Part shown: positions 17,981-52,517 of the stretch, piece by piece
Layout: each line of letters begins with the position of its first letter
Numbering within the stretch: position 1 is the stretch's first letter
IMG/VR virus record: IMGVR_UViG_3300032227_000570
Span: 35,800 to 99,799 of that record
Length of the DNA: 64,000 nt
From: a virus
Lineage: Duplodnaviria > Caudoviricetes
Direction: 5' to 3' (one strand)
Notes under the pieces: generated by a model
Database searches by the model: none
The model's input: the letters and a program-made list of their open reading frames with translations, nothing else
Told to the model about the DNA's origin: nothing
Position numbers and translations under genes: made by a program

Positions 17981-20191
17981 CTAGGAAGTTCCCTCTTCAC
18001 CCTTGAAAGAGCGGACACGCCATTGAGTTCCCATAGGGACCCACTGGCTAAGGCTGTCTAGAAGACGAGCAATCTTGATAGTACGGCTCTGGTAAAAGTA
18101 GGAGTAGGAAGCGTGGGCAGTGCCTGACCAATAGACACCGCTTGCAGCAGGAAGAGAGCCGTCAAAGTAATCGGTGGCATTAAAACCAGCCTCAACCTGT
18201 GCAGCATCAACGTATACGCTCACTGATGAAGAAGACAGTGTTCCAGCAATATTGAGTGAAAGAGTGATGTTCCCTGTTGCTGACAAGTCTTCAGGTATGT
18301 AGAGACTTACTGTGTACCGTTGCCATGTTGAGGTTAGAGCCAGGGTTGATGAAGCATTGACCACGTTTGTAGAGTCATCATCGTCTGCAACTAAGGTCAT
18401 AGTCAAGGTGGAGTTGGCAGATGCCTTCATGTAGATAGACGCTGTGTAGAAAGACCCTTGAGTCAACTTATAAGTATTGGGGTTTTTATTAGCGTTTGTA
18501 GACAGTGAAAAGGCGGTTTGTCCAGATAGTCGTAAAGAATAGGTTCCAGGAAGTCCTGGTGGAATTGTTGTGTTGTCTCTTGTTGCTGAAGAGTTGGTAG
18601 TCCAATAAGTTGAGTTTGTTTCAAATGATGGGTTAGCAAGGATGTTTACTTTTCTTGGTTCCAAGAATACGTCTAATGCTCTTGCTTCATCGTAATTGGT
18701 AGCAGTTGCACTAGGTGCCATCTGTACACAGTCGATGTTATATGAGTTTTGTGTTCTGAACTTTAACCGAAACGCCGCATAAACCGCACCAGCAGGAGCG
18801 GTAGCAGTTTGCTCAATGCGTTGGTACACACCTGTAGTTCCGTATTCAGTTCCGATTACTGGAGACCCAATCTGTGCTCCAACTTCGTCATACCAATAAA
18901 TACGTCCTTCAACGTTTCCATTTGAATCTGAAGCAGCGTAATAACTGAACTTGTATGCGGTACCTGCTGTAACTGGAATTCCTTTTGTTCGAGGAGAGTC
19001 TTTGCCAATAAACATGTTTGAGGTGTTTGTAACGCTTCCAGTTGCTGCAGTTGAGCCTAGGTTTGCACCACTGTTGGCGTATGTAAAGACTGTAGGGCTT
19101 ATAACAGTTGCAACGGTTGCACCACTTGCATTAAATGCAGCATCAACACCAGTAATGTTTATAACGTCCCCTTGGTCAAGACCGTGGGCAGCACTAAGGG
19201 TTAGTTTAGCAATGTTGTCGGTTCGTTCTTTAAAAGTTACTGTAGATGTAGTTGTAACAAAACGACCTGAGTAAGCCTTATCAATAGCGTTATTTCCTGT
19301 AGGTGCTGTCTTGTTACTTACAGAAGTTAGAGTTCCATGAGTTTTAGTCCAACGACCAATGCCGTTAGTAAAAGAAGAATCTTGAACATCTAAAAAGAGA
19401 TTTGGAGAAACAGTAACTGTCGGTGCATATCCTGTAAGTGCTTCGATATACCCAGAGATACCTAAGTAGGTTCCCTTGTTCTTGTATAGGTAAACGCTTT
19501 CTCTAATTAACTTCTTTTGATTCTTGTTAGGCAACCCTCTCTCTGGATAAAGACCTAGATTAAGTTGGTTAATACCTAAAAGTTGAGGAGGAGTAGTTCT
19601 TTTTCCATAAGAGGGTTTTAATAAAGAAGCATAGGTAAGGACCTCATCATAAGAAAATGAGAAGGGCTTTAAAAACTTATAAACAAAAGACTCCGTGTTT
19701 GGGATACCTGTAGGTGTCTGGTCATCTGTTGTATACACTTTTGGAAGCATCTCAAACAAGCGTGTTTGTGTTCCAAAGTCTTTTGGAACAACGGTTGTTG
19801 CAAAACCCGCTTGTTTCCAAAGGTTAGCACTTGTAAAAATCCACATGGTGTAATAGACGAACTGACCAGTTGGTGGGTAGTAATCATTATCAGTGTTTGA
19901 ATCTAAGAAGTTGTCTATACCATCATAAAAACGGTCACGTTCAACTGTTCCAGAAAGATTTGTTGTTGATGCTTGTTCCCAAAGAACAATTCCATCTTCT
20001 GCGGTCTCTGGGTAATTATCGTTGTTTCTTACCAAACGAATTTTTGTAAAATCACCTGCAGGTGGATTCCACAAAATCCAAACTTGGTTGTAATCCATGG
20101 CATAAGCAGACATAGGTTCTGAAGACAGGACAAGTCGTGGAGCCTGACCATAGTAGGCTCCATGAAATATCGCACCCGTGTACTTTGCCAC
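17981..20191 (-). CDS. Baseplate wedge/tail protein (P2 gpI-like domain plus carbohydrate-binding-like repeats)
   Basis: LFEMLPKVY...YKNKGTYLGI..YIEALTGY; NLFL...SSF..G...W and NILANPSFETN...W CBM-like modules; DAAQVE...ATDYFDG. Confidence 0.7.
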   Translation of the reverse strand: MAKYTGAIFHGAYYGQAPRLVLSSEPMSAYAMDYNQVWILWNPPAGDFTKIRLVRNNDNYPETAEDGIVLWEQASTTNLSGTVERDRFYDGIDNFLDSNTDNDYYPPTGQFVYYTMWIFTSANLWKQAGFATTVVPKDFGTQTRLFEMLPKVYTTDDQTPTGIPNTESFVYKFLKPFSFSYDEVLTYASLLKPSYGKRTTPPQLLGINQLNLGLYPERGLPNKNQKKLIRESVYLYKNKGTYLGISGYIEALTGYAPTVTVSPNLFLDVQDSSFTNGIGRWTKTHGTLTSVSNKTAPTGNNAIDKAYSGRFVTTTSTVTFKERTDNIAKLTLSAAHGLDQGDVINITGVDAAFNASGATVATVISPTVFTYANSGANLGSTAATGSVTNTSNMFIGKDSPRTKGIPVTAGTAYKFSYYAASDSNGNVEGRIYWYDEVGAQIGSPVIGTEYGTTGVYQRIEQTATAPAGAVYAAFRLKFRTQNSYNIDCVQMAPSATATNYDEARALDVFLEPRKVNILANPSFETNSTYWTTNSSATRDNTTIPPGLPGTYSLRLSGQTAFSLSTNANKNPNTYKLTQGSFYTASIYMKASANSTLTMTLVADDDDSTNVVNASSTLALTSTWQRYTVSLYIPEDLSATGNITLSLNIAGTLSSSSVSVYVDAAQVEAGFNATDYFDGSLPAASGVYWSGTAHASYSYFYQSRTIKIARLLDSLSQWVPMGTQWRVRSFKGEEGTS

Positions 20192-20650: not shown

Positions 20651-20881
20651 TTACTCACTAACTGGTGGTGTGAAGTTTGTGCCGTCCCATTTCCAACCAA
20701 CTTGTGGGTTGTTTTCTGCACCACGTGTAAACTCAAGGACTGTTGGGTTGCTTAAGAAAACAGAGGCACTACGCTCATCTGTTCCCATAACAAGGACAAC
20801 TTCTCCATCAAGTACAAAGGCTAGGCTTTTTGTTATAGCAGGTTGTTCACGTTTAAATTGGCTATTTACTGGCTCACTCAT
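20651..20881 (-). CDS. Small protein of a type often found beside fibre genes (assembly chaperone candidate)
   Basis: AFVLDGEVV...PQVGWKWDGTNFTPP. Confidence 0.5.
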   Translation of the reverse strand: MSEPVNSQFKREQPAITKSLAFVLDGEVVLVMGTDERSASVFLSNPTVLEFTRGAENNPQVGWKWDGTNFTPPVSE

Positions 20882-21159: not shown

Positions 21160-22392
21160 TTATTGTCCTAACGGTTTAACTATTAATGAGCCAATTGTAC
21201 GACCATCTTCAAAGTTACTTGGACGTGCTACAACCCCATACCCAGTTCCCGTTGCAAGAAATTCGGAGGTTGTGTATGTCCCTATTTGATTAGTATAAAG
21301 GCTGTCTGTGTAGGCATTGACAGTCATGTTTGTGCCATTAGCGGATATTTTTACCGCTGACCAACGGTCAGGAACTTGAACAGATTCAACAACCGAGAAG
21401 ACCCCATTAACCATTTTTACTATCTGTAAATAGAAGTAGTTTGTGTACGAAGTTCCTGTGGCTGATTGGATACACTCATTGTACGAACCCGCTTGGCAAC
21501 AAGCGTACAACGGCACATTTGTATAGCCGTCAGGTGCACACTCGTACTCTGTTCCTATCTGCCCAAAAACTTCTCCACTAGGACAGTACTCAATATACGT
21601 CTCTTGTAAATCATAAACTGGTTCACAGGGATAGTCTTCCCATGTATTTGTGCAAACCTGTCTTGTTCCAGTTCCTGGAGTACAGACTCTAACCACACCT
21701 CGACCAATTTGGTATACCCACTCACAGTTTACTGTGTCATAAGGTTCGGTAACACAGTTTTGTACAATTCTACCTGATGGAGTTGGTGGTACACAGTCGA
21801 TTTCTACCCACTCGTCGTAATAAAGAAGTTCGTACCCACCAGGACAGGTAAAATCATATATTGGTGTAGTTGTTTCAGTATTTGGCGGGTCACAACGTAA
21901 GGTGTAATCATACGGCTCAGTACAAGCAGTAATGCAGTAACTTACTGGACGAGATTGAACGCAATAAGTATACGTTTGAGAAGTTTGGTTGTAATAGGGA
22001 AGAACACCCCACCAGTTATTTGCGTCAGTTACACGAATAGCAACTCCAGTTCCTGGAGTTAACTCGTTGGCTTGAAGGTCAAACTCTAAAAATCCAGCAT
22101 CAATTGATGCCAATGGGTAATCTGATTTAGAACCAGTTGTTTTAGCAGCGTTAGAGTTAATTTGCCATTGGCTTCTTAGAATAGTCCAGCCTTGTCCTGA
22201 ATCTGCAGCACCTAAACCAGAGGTGGTATCGGCTCTATTAAAGAGGTCTTCAAGTTTGTCTGCCCAAAACTGTTTCCACTCCCCAGCAACTTTTACATAG
22301 CCAAACTTAGCCTTCTTCCAACCGCCATCTACTTTTGCAAATAGACCAGAAGCAGACTTAAAGTTGCCAGATACCTTAGAACCAATAGCCAT
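21160..22392 (-). CDS. Putative fibre-tip adhesin/receptor-binding protein with a 16-Cys insert
   Basis: N-terminal KVDGGWK...YVKVAGEWKQFW repeats; beta-sandwich-like flanks (FNRADT..LG...GQ.W); all 16 Cys lie in residues 144-307. Confidence 0.6.
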   Translation of the reverse strand: MAIGSKVSGNFKSASGLFAKVDGGWKKAKFGYVKVAGEWKQFWADKLEDLFNRADTTSGLGAADSGQGWTILRSQWQINSNAAKTTGSKSDYPLASIDAGFLEFDLQANELTPGTGVAIRVTDANNWWGVLPYYNQTSQTYTYCVQSRPVSYCITACTEPYDYTLRCDPPNTETTTPIYDFTCPGGYELLYYDEWVEIDCVPPTPSGRIVQNCVTEPYDTVNCEWVYQIGRGVVRVCTPGTGTRQVCTNTWEDYPCEPVYDLQETYIEYCPSGEVFGQIGTEYECAPDGYTNVPLYACCQAGSYNECIQSATGTSYTNYFYLQIVKMVNGVFSVVESVQVPDRWSAVKISANGTNMTVNAYTDSLYTNQIGTYTTSEFLATGTGYGVVARPSNFEDGRTIGSLIVKPLGQ

Positions 22393-22400
22393 CTTATGTC

Positions 22401-23069
22401 CTAAGCAGTGTACTTAATCCAGATGTCTCCGTTATTACCACCAGTTGGGTCTGCTGTTGAGACCGTGATGTTACGAAGACGTGAGGTTAGTGCTTGGTCT
22501 CCCGTAAGAGTTCCACCAGTGATTTGGATGGTTGTATCAGCAGCAAGGACAGCAGGTGTTGAATCAGAGTCAACCCAAAGTGTTCCTGTTGGAAGTCCCA
22601 AAGCAGAAGCATCAGGTTGAGTTGACTGCATAAGGATAGGTTTAATAACTTGATTTTTATAAATAATCTGACCGTCTTTATCAACCTTAGTTAAAATGGC
22701 TCCTGTTGAATCTTTAAAGCGAATTAGGTCAGCAGTTTGGCTTGTAAAGCCCTGAATAGTTAGACCAACAACTGTTGAGTTAGAAGACTGAATTGTTTCC
22801 CCACCAGTAAAGTGCACATACTGATTGTGAACATCTCCTTTAATTCCTTTTTCAATGTTTGCTACACGAGCAGCCAAAGACGAAAAAGTGGTTGTTGTAT
22901 CATCAAAAGAGCCAACATATCCAGAAGATACGTGTGGCATTGAACCAACGTAGTTTTCAATAGCCATAACTTCGTCTTGAAGGCTGTTGATATGTTCTGC
23001 AACAATGATTTGCGTATAATCGGTTTTATTTTGAAAGGGCTTGGTACCCGATGGGTAATCTGCTGCCAT
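22401..23069 (-). CDS. Tail fibre/connector protein
   Basis: A.YP....F....D....AEHINSLQDEV.AIE anchor-type start; ends STADPTGGNNGDIWIKY. Confidence 0.6.
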   Translation of the reverse strand: MAADYPSGTKPFQNKTDYTQIIVAEHINSLQDEVMAIENYVGSMPHVSSGYVGSFDDTTTTFSSLAARVANIEKGIKGDVHNQYVHFTGGETIQSSNSTVVGLTIQGFTSQTADLIRFKDSTGAILTKVDKDGQIIYKNQVIKPILMQSTQPDASALGLPTGTLWVDSDSTPAVLAADTTIQITGGTLTGDQALTSRLRNITVSTADPTGGNNGDIWIKYTA

Positions 23070-36497: not shown

Positions 36498-36615
36498 TTT
36501 TCTTTACCTTTTCTGGAAGTTGTTTACCTTTGGGAGTTTTAGACTCCCATTCCTTTGCCATCTTTGGGTCTTTAGCCCACATAAGGCGACGTTGTGCTTC
36601 TGATTTAAATGGCAT
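36472..36615 (-). CDS. 47-aa basic mini-protein (MPFKS.AQRR type)
   Basis: Hand-translated [47 protein letters not shown]; TAATG-coupled to the collagen gene. Confidence 0.7.
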   Translation of the reverse strand: MPFKSEAQRRLMWAKDPKMAKEWESKTPKGKQLPEKVKKNGGKKEGR

Positions 36616-38291
36616 TATGCAACCTCGTATGTTCCAGAAATAGAAATAGTGTCACCAGTTCCAATATTTGTTGGATAGGTAGGTGTCATTCTGGCTGTAG
36701 TAGTTGTGGATGTCTGTGCATATAGAGGAAGAGTAGTTGAACCTGCAGTAGAAATACCATAGATAAGGAACGTTCCTGTTCCCGCACTTCCCATAAATGT
36801 AAAGATAGAGCCAGTAATAGGTGCTACTGGTAAAGATACAGAGTAATTTCCTGAACCTTCTGAGGTCGTAGACCCGTCTGTAATAAGGATTCTAAACCAA
36901 ACTGTTTTACCAATTTGCTTGTAGTTTCCAGTAATAGAACCATTACCAATAGTTGGATTTGTAGTTGATGCTGTCCACGTAGGGGTGTATGAAGTCCATG
37001 CTGTAAATTCAGATGAGGCTGCAGGTCCTGTGGCTCCTGTAGGTCCAGTAACAGTACTTGCTGCACCTGTTGGTCCAGTTGGTCCTTGTACTCCTTGTAA
37101 ACCTTGCACACCTTGTGGTCCTGTAGGTCCAAGTGCACCAGTAGGTCCACTAGGTCCCGTTGGTCCTGCTATTGTAGACGCAGGTCCAGTTGGTCCAGTT
37201 GCTCCTTGAATACCTTGCGGTCCTGTAGGACCTGTAACTGATAAACCTTGTGGTCCTGTTGGTCCAGTTACTCCTATTGCACCAGTTGGACCTGTTGGTC
37301 CTGTAACTGTAGAAGCAGCACCAGTAGGTCCTGTAGGACCTTGAGTACCTTGTGGTCCAACTGGTCCTTGTGAACCTGTTGGTCCTGTAACTGTAGAAGC
37401 AGCACCAGTAGGTCCTGTTGGTCCTGTAACTGATGGGCCTGTAGGTCCTGTAGGTCCTAAAACATCTCCAATATCAACCCATGTTGAACCTGATGGATTC
37501 CACAAAAGAAGTGAGCCATCATCAACAATAAGCCAAACATCTCCAGGGCTACCAATTAATGTTGCAGCGTTAAATGCTGCACGTGTTGCAAAAGAACCCT
37601 TGATTTGAATACCAACACCTTGTGGACCTGTTGCACCTGTAGGTCCGAGTGCTCCAGTTGCTCCTGTAGGACCTGCATTACCTTGACTACCTTGTTGACC
37701 TGCTGGTCCAATTGGTCCTTGAGGACCCGTGGCTCCTGTAGGTCCTGTTGCACCGTTAGTACCAGAAGCACCTGTCGGTCCTGTAGGTCCAACGATTGCA
37801 GATGCAGCGGTTGTTTGTACAGTTCCATCACCAAAGGTAAGTGACTTACCACTAGCAATACGAATATTGCGATTTAAAACTATTCTTCCTGAAGAAGTTG
37901 TAAGTCCTATGTCAATGTCTACATTTGGTTGAATAGATTCAATGTTGTTATTAACAAACTTTAGGTTACCTACCTGTAACTGGTAAGCACCGTTAATATA
38001 GAGAATTCCGTCAGATACTTGAAGACCTGCTTCAGTTCCTAAAACGTCATCGGTAATATAGATAGTTCCTGGACCAATGTGCAGGGATTCCCAACGCTTA
38101 GTAGGAGTTCCAAGTGTGTAGAGGTTATCGACAGAAGGCACGATGCTTTGAGTGACTGAGCCTAGGTTGCTTCCAGCACCAGCAGGTCCTGTTGGACCTT
38201 GAGTACCTAACTTACTGTCTAAATAATCAAGGGCAGCATTTAGAGCAATGTGCCAATTTAAATCTCCGTAATTAGGTTTATTCAGAGGCAT
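36615..38291 (-). CDS. Collagen-like (GPT-repeat) virion fibre protein
   Basis: Long G-P-T/G-A-T runs; C-terminal WTSYTPTW...G.YKQIGK.V...SLPV domain. Confidence 0.85.
37290..37418. repeat. 45-bp exact direct repeat inside the collagen gene
   Basis: acctgttggtcctgtaactgtagaagcagcaccagtaggtcctgt at 37290-37334 and 37374-37418. Confidence 0.8.
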
Positions 38292-39041: not shown

Positions 39042-40088
39042 CTAAGCGGAAAAGAACTCTACATTCTTCTTTAGACGTTCATCGTTAGGGTCAAGCATAA
39101 GTGCTTGTTGACCATAAGTCAGGGCTTCTTCTTTACGACCTAGATTGTACAAAGCAATTGCCGCTAAGTCATGGGGAAGTGCTCCCCAAGCCTTGGCTTC
39201 ATTGAGGTACTGCTCTGGCTTGTCTTTAATGGCTAGTGCTTTAAGGGCATACTCTAAAGACTCAACCCACTTTTCATTCTCGTAGTAGTACTCAGCCAAA
39301 TCAACCAAAGGTTCACGAGAGTCTTGGGCTTCATTGTGAGCCTTGAGAAACCACTCTTCTCGTTCTTGTCCTTGCGAACACTTAGCGATGTATCGCATAG
39401 ATGCAGCACGTTCTACATTCCACCGTGCACGTGGAAGTGCTAGGTGACGCTGTAACTCAGCCTTAGCCTTTTCGCACATTCCGTAGTAGTAGTACTCACG
39501 ACCAAGGTAATGAGCATTACGGTCATCGTGTGGGTCTTCTGCAGTTGCCATCTCTAGCATTGGGAAGTATTGCTTGCGTGACTTTGTATTGTCTGGGAAG
39601 TGATGAATTTCTAGCCCGACATTGGCTTGCTTCTCTTCAATTAGGTACGGAGAAAGAACCTCATGTACAGGGTGCTTCCATCTGTAACCTTGACGAGCAT
39701 GAATCTTGTCGCCGTAATACGTAAGACCCTCTGTTCCATCTGGGTTCCAGGACCAGGTGTACTTGTATCTAGGTCTTGTAACTTCTTTAGAAACTGCTTC
39801 AAGGTGTGGTCGCCAACCAGGTACAAACACTTCGTCCATATCCAGGGCAACGCAGTAGTCGATGTCTAATGGGAGTGCTGCTAAAGAAGCATTACGAGCA
39901 TCTTCAAAACGCCAGGGTCTAATGTTTATCTGGATAACGTTGATACCAAGAGCCTTGGCTTTTTCCACAGTACCGTCTGTAGAACCTGTGTCTGCTATAA
40001 GAAGGTAGTCTGCTTCTTTAGCAGACTCATACCACTTCTCAACAAACTGCTCTTCGTTTAGTGCGATTGTGTATACAGCGATTTTCAT
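39042..40088 (-). CDS. Glycosyltransferase family 2 with C-terminal TPR repeats
   Basis: IALNEEQFV, DTGSTDGT, F..ARN.SL, LDMDE (DxD), W..PVHE; TPR-like helices. Confidence 0.9.
   Translation of the reverse strand: MKIAVYTIALNEEQFVEKWYESAKEADYLLIADTGSTDGTVEKAKALGINVIQINIRPWRFEDARNASLAALPLDIDYCVALDMDEVFVPGWRPHLEAVSKEVTRPRYKYTWSWNPDGTEGLTYYGDKIHARQGYRWKHPVHEVLSPYLIEEKQANVGLEIHHFPDNTKSRKQYFPMLEMATAEDPHDDRNAHYLGREYYYYGMCEKAKAELQRHLALPRARWNVERAASMRYIAKCSQGQEREEWFLKAHNEAQDSREPLVDLAEYYYENEKWVESLEYALKALAIKDKPEQYLNEAKAWGALPHDLAAIALYNLGRKEEALTYGQQALMLDPNDERLKKNVEFFSA

Positions 40089-50507: not shown

Positions 50508-52516
<2,009 letters not shown>

Positions 52517-52517
<1 letters not shown>

Follow-up and report, generated by a model that had tools for sequence, protein, structure and literature searches.

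The described systems closest to the protein studied here each resemble it in part. The protein, P0001, is the 410-residue product of what we call the ladder gene, which lies in a 64,000-nucleotide stretch of viral DNA (the window; positions 35,800 to 99,799 of IMG/VR virus record IMGVR_UViG_3300032227_000570) and is present in a single copy in the 99.8-kb phage genome. The tip of T4 gp37 (2XGF) is an obligate trimer in which Fe2+ is held by HxH motifs. Its chain leaves a globular collar, reaches a variable tip and returns antiparallel, with regular cross-links along the rod, as is predicted for P0001; the gp37 links are Fe2+/HxH sites in a trimer, however, whereas the Cys-bearing insert of P0001 contains no His, and therefore no HxH motif, and has Cys pairs instead. 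Theta-defensins, protegrin and tachyplesin consist of two antiparallel strands joined by parallel, nested disulfide rungs, the arrangement predicted for P0001, but they are 17-18 residues long with 2-3 rungs, compared with 8 predicted rungs over 164 residues. Unlike these peptides, the P0001 ladder interrupts a folded domain, and has neither a cyclic backbone nor an antimicrobial role. The bovine ultralong CDR-H3 (the third complementarity-determining region of the antibody heavy chain), to which a first-pass annotation of this DNA had likened the protein, also projects a variable binding element from a beta-sandwich on a long beta-ribbon stalk, but its disulfides lie in the knob, with none along the stalk, the stalk is about ten times shorter, and the comparison is an analogy only. 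T-even gp38 is, like P0001, a small separate protein in which conserved segments alternate with hypervariable ones, and which is proposed to be distal and to set the host range; its Gly-rich motifs form a polyglycine-II sandwich, whereas P0001 lacks such motifs and has a concanavalin A (ConA)-like body, and gp38 is absent among the sequence and fold matches of P0001. Closest to that body are the receptor-binding domain (RBD) of mycobacteriophage TM4 gp23 (9n6a), the carbohydrate-binding module (CBM) of Douge BppU (8zdo) and CBM66 (4b1m), which have the same beta-sandwich fold (Z 14.1-16.8). The two phage proteins, also from actinophages, occupy a similar place as distal baseplate proteins, but none of the three has Pfam-detectable sequence similarity to P0001, and none aligns over its Cys-laddered stalk. 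The Douge BppU CBM binds mycobacterial lipoarabinomannan/arabinomannan (LAM/AM) and alpha-glucan on arrays (PMC13033339).

The body of P0001 is an ordinary actinophage-type lectin module, and it is the stalk that lacks a described counterpart: we found none in Pfam, PHROGs, the PDB, the ESM Atlas or the literature. Literature searches on Cys-rich, disulfide-hairpin or cystine-ladder phage receptor-binding proteins (RBPs) likewise returned no described adhesin with this architecture, as the first-pass annotation had supposed. In concept, the stalk might be seen as the out-and-back needle of T4 gp37 combined with the cystine ladder of a theta-defensin, at about ten times the size of the latter. 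We suggest that P0001 is probably a baseplate-attached receptor-binding protein, made up of an N-terminal anchor, a ConA-like lectin body and a stalk hairpin with mirror-image Cys rungs; the virion location, the receptor binding and the timing of oxidation are what we infer.

The starting observation was the distribution of Cys. All 16 residues listed by the first-pass annotation (144, 153, 157, 167, 183, 200, 213, 223, 237, 247, 256, 270, 285, 298, 299 and 307) are exact in the translation, and all lie in one insert between Cys-free flanks that are, as described there, rich in Tyr and Thr. When paired from the outside in, they give index sums that we recomputed as 451, 452, 455, 452, 453, 456, 460 and 460, and the centre of the insert is Y226-Q-I-G-R-G-V-V233, again as claimed. 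The insert is 9.8% Cys and 7% Gly, without His, Lys, CxxC knuckles or Gly-rich motifs, while other structural proteins of the phage contain 0-0.4% Cys. If the outermost two Cys are fixed and the 14 within them are placed randomly, the sums stay in so narrow a range in 0.07% of trials; if instead the observed inter-Cys gaps are shuffled, sums this constant arise in 3.5%. Because gap shuffling yields it at this frequency, the mirror in P0001 taken alone is modest evidence and largely a product of roughly even spacing. It becomes convincing through comparison with the sequences of relatives, not through P0001 by itself.

Metagenomic homologues of P0001 numbered 71 at E <= 1e-3, and an exhaustive search gave 473 representatives (50%-identity level) at the same threshold. 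No Pfam family matched P0001 at E <= 0.1, and two PHROGs of unknown function, 25859 and 36019, match residues 1-46 only. In an alignment of 67 homologue sequences (A2), every protein has an even number of Cys (67/67, 14-34 Cys), and every Cys is inside the insert. The same parity holds for 66/66 further full-length members of ten 90%-identity clusters, giving 133/133 overall, and for 131 of 148 more distant representatives (p ~3e-23). The highest count, 46, is found in a 647-residue member, and relatives would have from 3 to about 23 rungs. The insert itself is 154-202 residues long in relatives. Mean identity to P0001 across the 67 homologues falls from the anchor (Table 1) through the body (55-66%), the base of the stalk (about 50%) and its middle (23-28%) to 15-20% at the tip (15% for non-Cys tip residues), and is 55% in the C-terminal half of the sandwich. 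Residues inserted in homologues relative to P0001 are concentrated at one place, with 1260 of about 1790 falling right after residue 229, at the predicted turn. The expectation that the flanks would be conserved while the insert varied yet kept an even, mirrored Cys set was borne out across this alignment.

The mirror itself can be tested in each relative by shuffling its gaps. The test gave p<0.05 for 62 of 67 close homologues and for 43 of 118 distant representatives (50%-identity), 29 of the latter reaching p<0.01 (binomial ~1e-25). In one distant subfamily, the relatives of P0124, the gap lists are palindromes around a central gap of 18-19 residues, with 3-11 equal rungs of 7-13 residues per arm. 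Examples are P0112 (12x6, 18, 12x6), P0402 (7, 12, 7, 9, 9, 11, 9, 9, 18, 9, 9, 11, 9, 9, 7, 12, 7) and P0396 (7, 9, 19, 9, 7). Stalk length in this subfamily therefore changes by whole rungs on both arms. Two other members differ from this pattern: P0394 has 9 Cys before and 11 after an 18-residue tip gap, and may be an unequal-arm intermediate judging from its sequence, and P0149 has the same scaffold with a Cys-free insert of PPSYYAG-like repeats.

The topology of pairing can be read from natural double mutants, that is, homologue pairs with at least 60% identity in which one protein has exactly two extra Cys. We identified 14 distinct events of this kind. In 11, the two residues occupy exact mirror ranks, with a position sum equal to the mirror constant of the protein, at separations of 8-129 residues; with random Cys pairing, at least 11 of 14 such events would be expected with p ~3e-11. 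One more event is off by one rank, at a CC doublet. C213 and C247 of P0001, for example, are replaced together by F and T in P0020. Other mirror-rank events are 193/260 in P0014, 200/253 in P0028 and 174/303 in P0066, as well as 211/278, 221/270 and 229/260 in the P0046 clade. In P0033, both C157 and one Cys of the CC doublet are absent. The coupled loss of Cys pairs in close homologues provides a full predicted disulfide map (Table 1). The nested mirror pairing proposed by the first-pass annotation is upheld by three lines of comparative evidence, the coupled events, the palindromic gaps of the distant subfamily and the 133/133 even counts, and a nested Cys ladder on a lectin body is supported by these sequence comparisons and by the model described below.

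The same Cys residues could be imagined as a string of small Cys-rich units that pair near neighbours, with the mirror sums a by-product of even spacing. The 3.5% of shuffling trials that reproduce the sums of P0001 alone fit this idea, as do short repeats such as C-x-T-E-P-Y-D, found twice on the first arm. However, such units predict short separations without a common centre, unlike the mirror-rank events; unequal gaps form palindromes in many unrelated members; and AlphaFold2 shows one hairpin. We consider this explanation highly improbable. We also rejected EGF-like, TraN-like and zinc-finger modules specifically, given coupled Cys as many as 129 residues apart, no Pfam match, and no CxxC or His.

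AlphaFold2, run with alignment A2 as input, produced a model of P0001 with a predicted local distance difference test (pLDDT) score of 88.6 and a predicted template modelling score (pTM) of 0.58. This predicted model, which is not a solved structure, was compared with 48,161 PDB chains by VIA-align. The best match is CBM66 4b1m (Z 16.8, root mean square deviation (rmsd) 2.6 Å, 153/165 residues aligned), and the next are the TM4 gp23 RBD (9n6a, Z 14.8) and chain 8zdo_a of the Douge baseplate protein BppU (Z 14.1). Further matches include phage J-1 Dit CBM2 and G7C gp63.1; many GH43_C2, GH16 and legume-lectin domains also match, at Z 10-15. These results agree with the lectin-like beta-sandwich of the first-pass annotation, and the modelled body has a ConA-like lectin fold, CBM66-like by fold but not by curated sequence family. 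The matches span model residues ~46-410, with 153-176 residues aligned, and none aligns over the 160-200-residue Cys-laddered stalk. In BFVD, six 'uncultured Caudovirales phage' proteins share the whole architecture (E 1e-19 to 1e-12), and actinophage minor tail proteins match the body only.

In the model, the outgoing arm of the stalk comprises strands 126-166, 172-182, 188-201 and 207-228, and the returning arm strands 232-253, 257-269, 275-286 and 291-328 (assigned by DSSP). Since the strand breaks on the two arms mirror each other, we read the stalk as one kinked hairpin that continues two neighbouring sandwich strands, in line with the antiparallel hairpin of about 165 residues predicted by the first-pass annotation. 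Foldseek gave weak best matches in the PDB, to pore-form protomers of beta-barrel toxins (E ~1e-3, template modelling (TM) score ~0.1, rmsd ~55 Å). We set aside kinship to pore-forming toxins and read this weak likeness as a globular domain with a long hairpin, which is also consistent with the hairpin in the model.

A fully extended arm would reach about 290 Å from C144 to the turn (86 residues x ~3.4 Å, by arithmetic), and on physical grounds it is doubtful that a two-stranded ribbon this long could stand alone. It is possible to imagine instead that three copies assemble into a needle, with six arms in one rod as in T4 gp37, in which the Cys form inter-chain disulfides or an axial metal site, and the tip still recognises the host. 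In gp37, residues of the outgoing and returning strands reportedly build the axial metal sites jointly, in work attributed to Bartual et al. 2010. Any joint action of the two Cys at a level would lead one to expect even parity, mirror spacing and coupled loss just as well, and the low pTM gives further room for such an assembly. Against it, AlphaFold2 confidently places the two arms of a single chain next to each other, the best-matching ConA-like CBM modules of actinophage and lactococcal RBPs are single-chain modules on trimeric stems, the insert is devoid of His, and a site of six thiolates would be chemically unusual. No clear buried face emerges from the odd/even hydrophobicity of the two arms, which says nothing either way about oligomerisation. 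We regard a trimeric needle as rather unlikely.

Whatever the number of chains, the first-pass annotation had left the choice between disulfides and metal sites. The Cys pairs are most likely intrachain disulfides, judging from the sequences, as the counts are not all multiples of four (14, 18, 22, 26, 34), Cys are lost in twos, replacements include F and T, and neither His nor CxxC is present. We judge metal sites less likely on the same comparisons. In a trimer, the two Cys of one level could form inter-chain bonds or an axial site, and the comparative data fit both. Disulfides in virions are not without parallel: the virion of the M. abscessus phage Jabs contains an extensive disulfide network of about 1,700 bonds (PMC13419713), and the tail of Agrobacterium phage Milano has an extensive disulfide network according to the title of the paper describing it (PMC10811340).

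Several observations weigh against a receptor-binding protein with a long, flat, disulfide-rung ribbon. Odd Cys counts occur in 17 of the 148 distant representatives, several of which are fragments, and two coupled events out of 14 do not fall at mirror ranks. The pTM of the AlphaFold2 model is only 0.58, and the ESM Atlas model of P0001 has a pLDDT of 0.64. A two-stranded ribbon of up to ~290 Å is without solved precedent, and in reality it may fold up, coil or oligomerise. Regular, flat ribbon geometry is impossible at the stalk base, since C153 and C157 share parity but the partners presumed for them, C298 and C299, are neighbours in the chain; in many relatives the rung period is odd (9, 11 or 13 residues), which requires both arms to bulge. 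The cytoplasm in which virions assemble is reducing, and no thioredoxin-family protein (PF00085) is encoded in the phage genome. Finally, tblastn of P0001 against 50,697 phage records gave no match at E <= 1e-3, and hence no cultured relative; because of this, virion presence and receptor binding are argued from gene position and fold alone. The two model scores, the parity and period problems, and Pro- and Gly-rich breaks that follow several stalk Cys lead us to treat ~290 Å as an upper bound, with bulges, kinks, coiling or lateral packing likely.

We suggest the following model for P0001 as a receptor-binding protein. The 45-residue N-terminal anchor would fix the protein to the tail, and would present a ConA-like sandwich of the kind used by actinophage receptor-binding proteins for cell-wall glycans. 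Two neighbouring strands of the sandwich would run on as a two-armed hairpin of about 2 x 85-100 residues, and every Cys on the way out would have its counterpart at the mirror position on the way back. Disulfides would form once the particle meets oxidising water, possibly after help or protection from the product of the adjacent DUF6171 gene. A thin ribbon that would be unstable by itself would gain rigidity and protease resistance from the rungs, leaving the sequence between them, and above all the tip, free to vary. Stalk length would change mainly at the tip (in the distant subfamily, by one rung on both arms), which could retune reach and host-surface specificity. More tentatively, the family as a whole may be an undescribed modular scaffold: a free-standing two-armed beta-ribbon, tens of nm long, held by nothing but its 3 to about 23 laddered disulfide rungs, varying in length in this same manner, used by phages of freshwater actinobacteria as a hypervariable probe of adjustable reach and matured by a dedicated small Cys-rich factor, DUF6171, which would overcome the difficulty of forming many ordered disulfides in a cytoplasmically assembled protein.

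Phage host recognition decides which bacteria get killed, and in freshwater actinobacteria, abundant as they are, it is hardly understood at all. A standard lectin body bearing a Cys-pinned stalk with a variable number of rungs and a fastest-evolving tip is a design absent from solved phage adhesins. Should the rungs prove to be disulfides, no longer cystine ladder would be known, and this one could represent a natural rigid, sequence-tolerant display scaffold of interest for protein engineering. It also raises the question of how 8-23 ordered disulfides arise in a protein built in a reducing cytoplasm, for which the adjacent DUF6171 protein is a candidate helper.

Table 1. Parts of the ladder gene and its neighbours, in window coordinates, with the predicted Cys rungs
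Feature	Position	Strand	Basis or details
Cys-laddered lectin tail protein P0001, whole gene	21160..22392	minus	open reading frame and translation, 410 aa plus stop
N-terminal anchor, aa 1-45, three K-V-x-G-x-W/F-K beta-hairpin repeats	22258..22392	minus	78% mean identity, 67 homologues
N-terminal half of ConA-like sandwich, aa 46-125	22018..22257	minus	pLDDT 90-97; fold matches
Stalk, aa 126-328, two sandwich strands extended into a kinked hairpin (predicted)	21409..22017	minus	DSSP of model, pLDDT 82-93
Cys-bearing insert, aa 144-307, 16 Cys	21472..21963	minus	Cys positions in translation
Tip turn G229-R230-G231 (predicted)	21700..21708	minus	sole 3-residue break at centre of model strand pattern
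C-terminal half of lectin sandwich, aa 329-410	21163..21408	minus	pLDDT 91-98; same fold matches
Predicted rungs of P0001	C144-C307, C153-C299, C157-C298, C167-C285, C183-C270, C200-C256, C213-C247, C223-C237		mirror pairing
222-aa fibre-like protein ending GDIWIKYTA	22401..23069	minus	C-terminus matches end of tail-fibre PHROG 14064
DUF6171 partner gene, 91 aa	20883..21158	minus	Pfam PF19668, E 5.3e-6, 27.2 bits vs gathering cut-off 27.0 (borderline)
76-aa gene, conserved 'V-I-D-G-x-V-V ... T-D-E-R' motif	20651..20881	minus	homologues after DUF6171 in L005, L006

The anchor is the most conserved segment of P0001. It forms short strands with pLDDT 42-69 in the AlphaFold2 model, which is what one would expect of a segment that docks. 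Two features noted in the first-pass annotation, the K-V-x-G-x-[WF]-K repeats at the N-terminus and the GDIWIKY ending of the upstream gene, are indeed present, but the gp38-like docking on an upstream fibre tip that it drew from them is not supported, given that the same anchor occurs beside different upstream genes and that the insert has no gp38-type Gly-rich motifs. The anchor is common to distant relatives with other upstream genes and to PHROGs with other C-terminal parts, while the 222-residue fibre-like gene is kept upstream in close relatives and not in distant ones. We think the anchor is better read, from its distribution, as a putative general tail or baseplate adaptor, with the 222-residue protein a possible docking partner of the ladder protein. 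The 90%-identity cluster of a 442-residue ladder protein, P0055, contains many 220-residue members (P0299-P0311) that are homologues of the upstream fibre gene, which is either a clustering oddity or a hint of fused forms somewhere.

The ladder gene starts 8 nt past the stop of the fibre-like gene, with an AGGA-type Shine-Dalgarno motif ~7 nt before its ATG, and the DUF6171 gene starts 1 nt past the ladder-gene stop. Given these spacings, the fibre-like, ladder and DUF6171 genes are probably translated as one unit. They belong to a tail module which, in order on the minus strand, encodes a tape measure with an M23 peptidase domain, gpD-like, gp25-like and baseplate J proteins, a 158-residue V-type oligonucleotide/oligosaccharide-binding (OB) protein, the 222-residue fibre-like protein, the ladder protein, the 91-residue DUF6171 protein, proteins of 76 and 148 residues, a 736-residue CBM_4_9 protein and a small membrane protein. 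This order is kept in the relatives L001-L003, which are 31-47% identical, and the ladder gene lies within a conserved baseplate module. The V-type spike OB protein (PF04717; 23130-23606, minus) is encoded after baseplate J and not before gp25, a placement also kept in L001-L003.

The virus record from which the window comes is 99,799 bp long, is rated complete and has direct terminal repeats. The G+C content is ~44%. The tail sheath is 34-38% identical to its closest matches, the sheaths of ~113-kb Streptomyces BRock-type myophages, and WhiB is encoded outside the tail module of the window (G000:C1:39970-40191, E 1.6e-18). WhiB is a marker of actinobacteria and their phages. The phage is a deep-branching, complete, contractile-tailed actinophage, and its sequence suggests that it probably infects a low-GC actinobacterium, such as one from fresh water; Nanopelagicales-type bacteria have been isolated (PMC10202952).

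Other products of this genome could also contact the host. The 736-residue CBM_4_9 protein (17981-20191, minus) closes the tail module, contains a single Cys and is another candidate for receptor binding. A glycosyltransferase (PHROG 13126) and two large tail-fibre proteins of collagen-like type are encoded upstream of the tail genes, at 36615-38291, 50508-52517 and 39042-40088 (minus). With the CBM_4_9 protein and three collagen-like fibre proteins as further adhesin candidates, P0001 might be a virion protein other than the specificity determinant, such as a probe or ruler that spans the cell wall, a decoy-resistant decoration or a glycan-anchoring accessory, with the CBM_4_9 protein as the true RBP. 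Some distant relatives (P0147, P0152, P0175) carry the lectin module in multi-copy giant proteins, which could fit such a role. We find this improbable, however, as the steep gradient to a hypervariable tip and the variation in rung number between close relatives are hallmarks of a surface coevolving with a host, and we continue to favour P0001 as a receptor-binding protein.

The gene directly after the ladder gene encodes a DUF6171 protein with six invariant Cys (C44, C47, C57, C60, C62 and C75), and this protein is far more conserved than the ladder protein. A literature search found no paper on DUF6171, and the model of the partner (pLDDT 83) has no fold match in the PDB, with Z at most 2.5. 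We hypothesize, from sequence and gene order, that DUF6171 may be a maturation, protection or metal-binding helper for the ladder protein. Its homologues number 82, many of them precomputed as PF19668. In the window, as in L001, L002, L003, L005 and L006, the gene comes immediately after the ladder gene; L005 (ladder protein of 647 residues, 46 Cys) and L006 (413 residues, 22 Cys) differ greatly from the rest in phage context. Three other phage contigs (L007-L009) encode short forms of DUF6171, 63-74 residues long, that are not beside ladder genes, so that the pairing is not obligatory for the whole DUF6171 family. A homologue of the 76-residue gene is also found near DUF6171 in L008. In unrelated phage backbones, the DUF6171 and 'VIDGxVV...TDER' genes travel behind ladder genes (L005:6953-7397 and L006:6252-6837).

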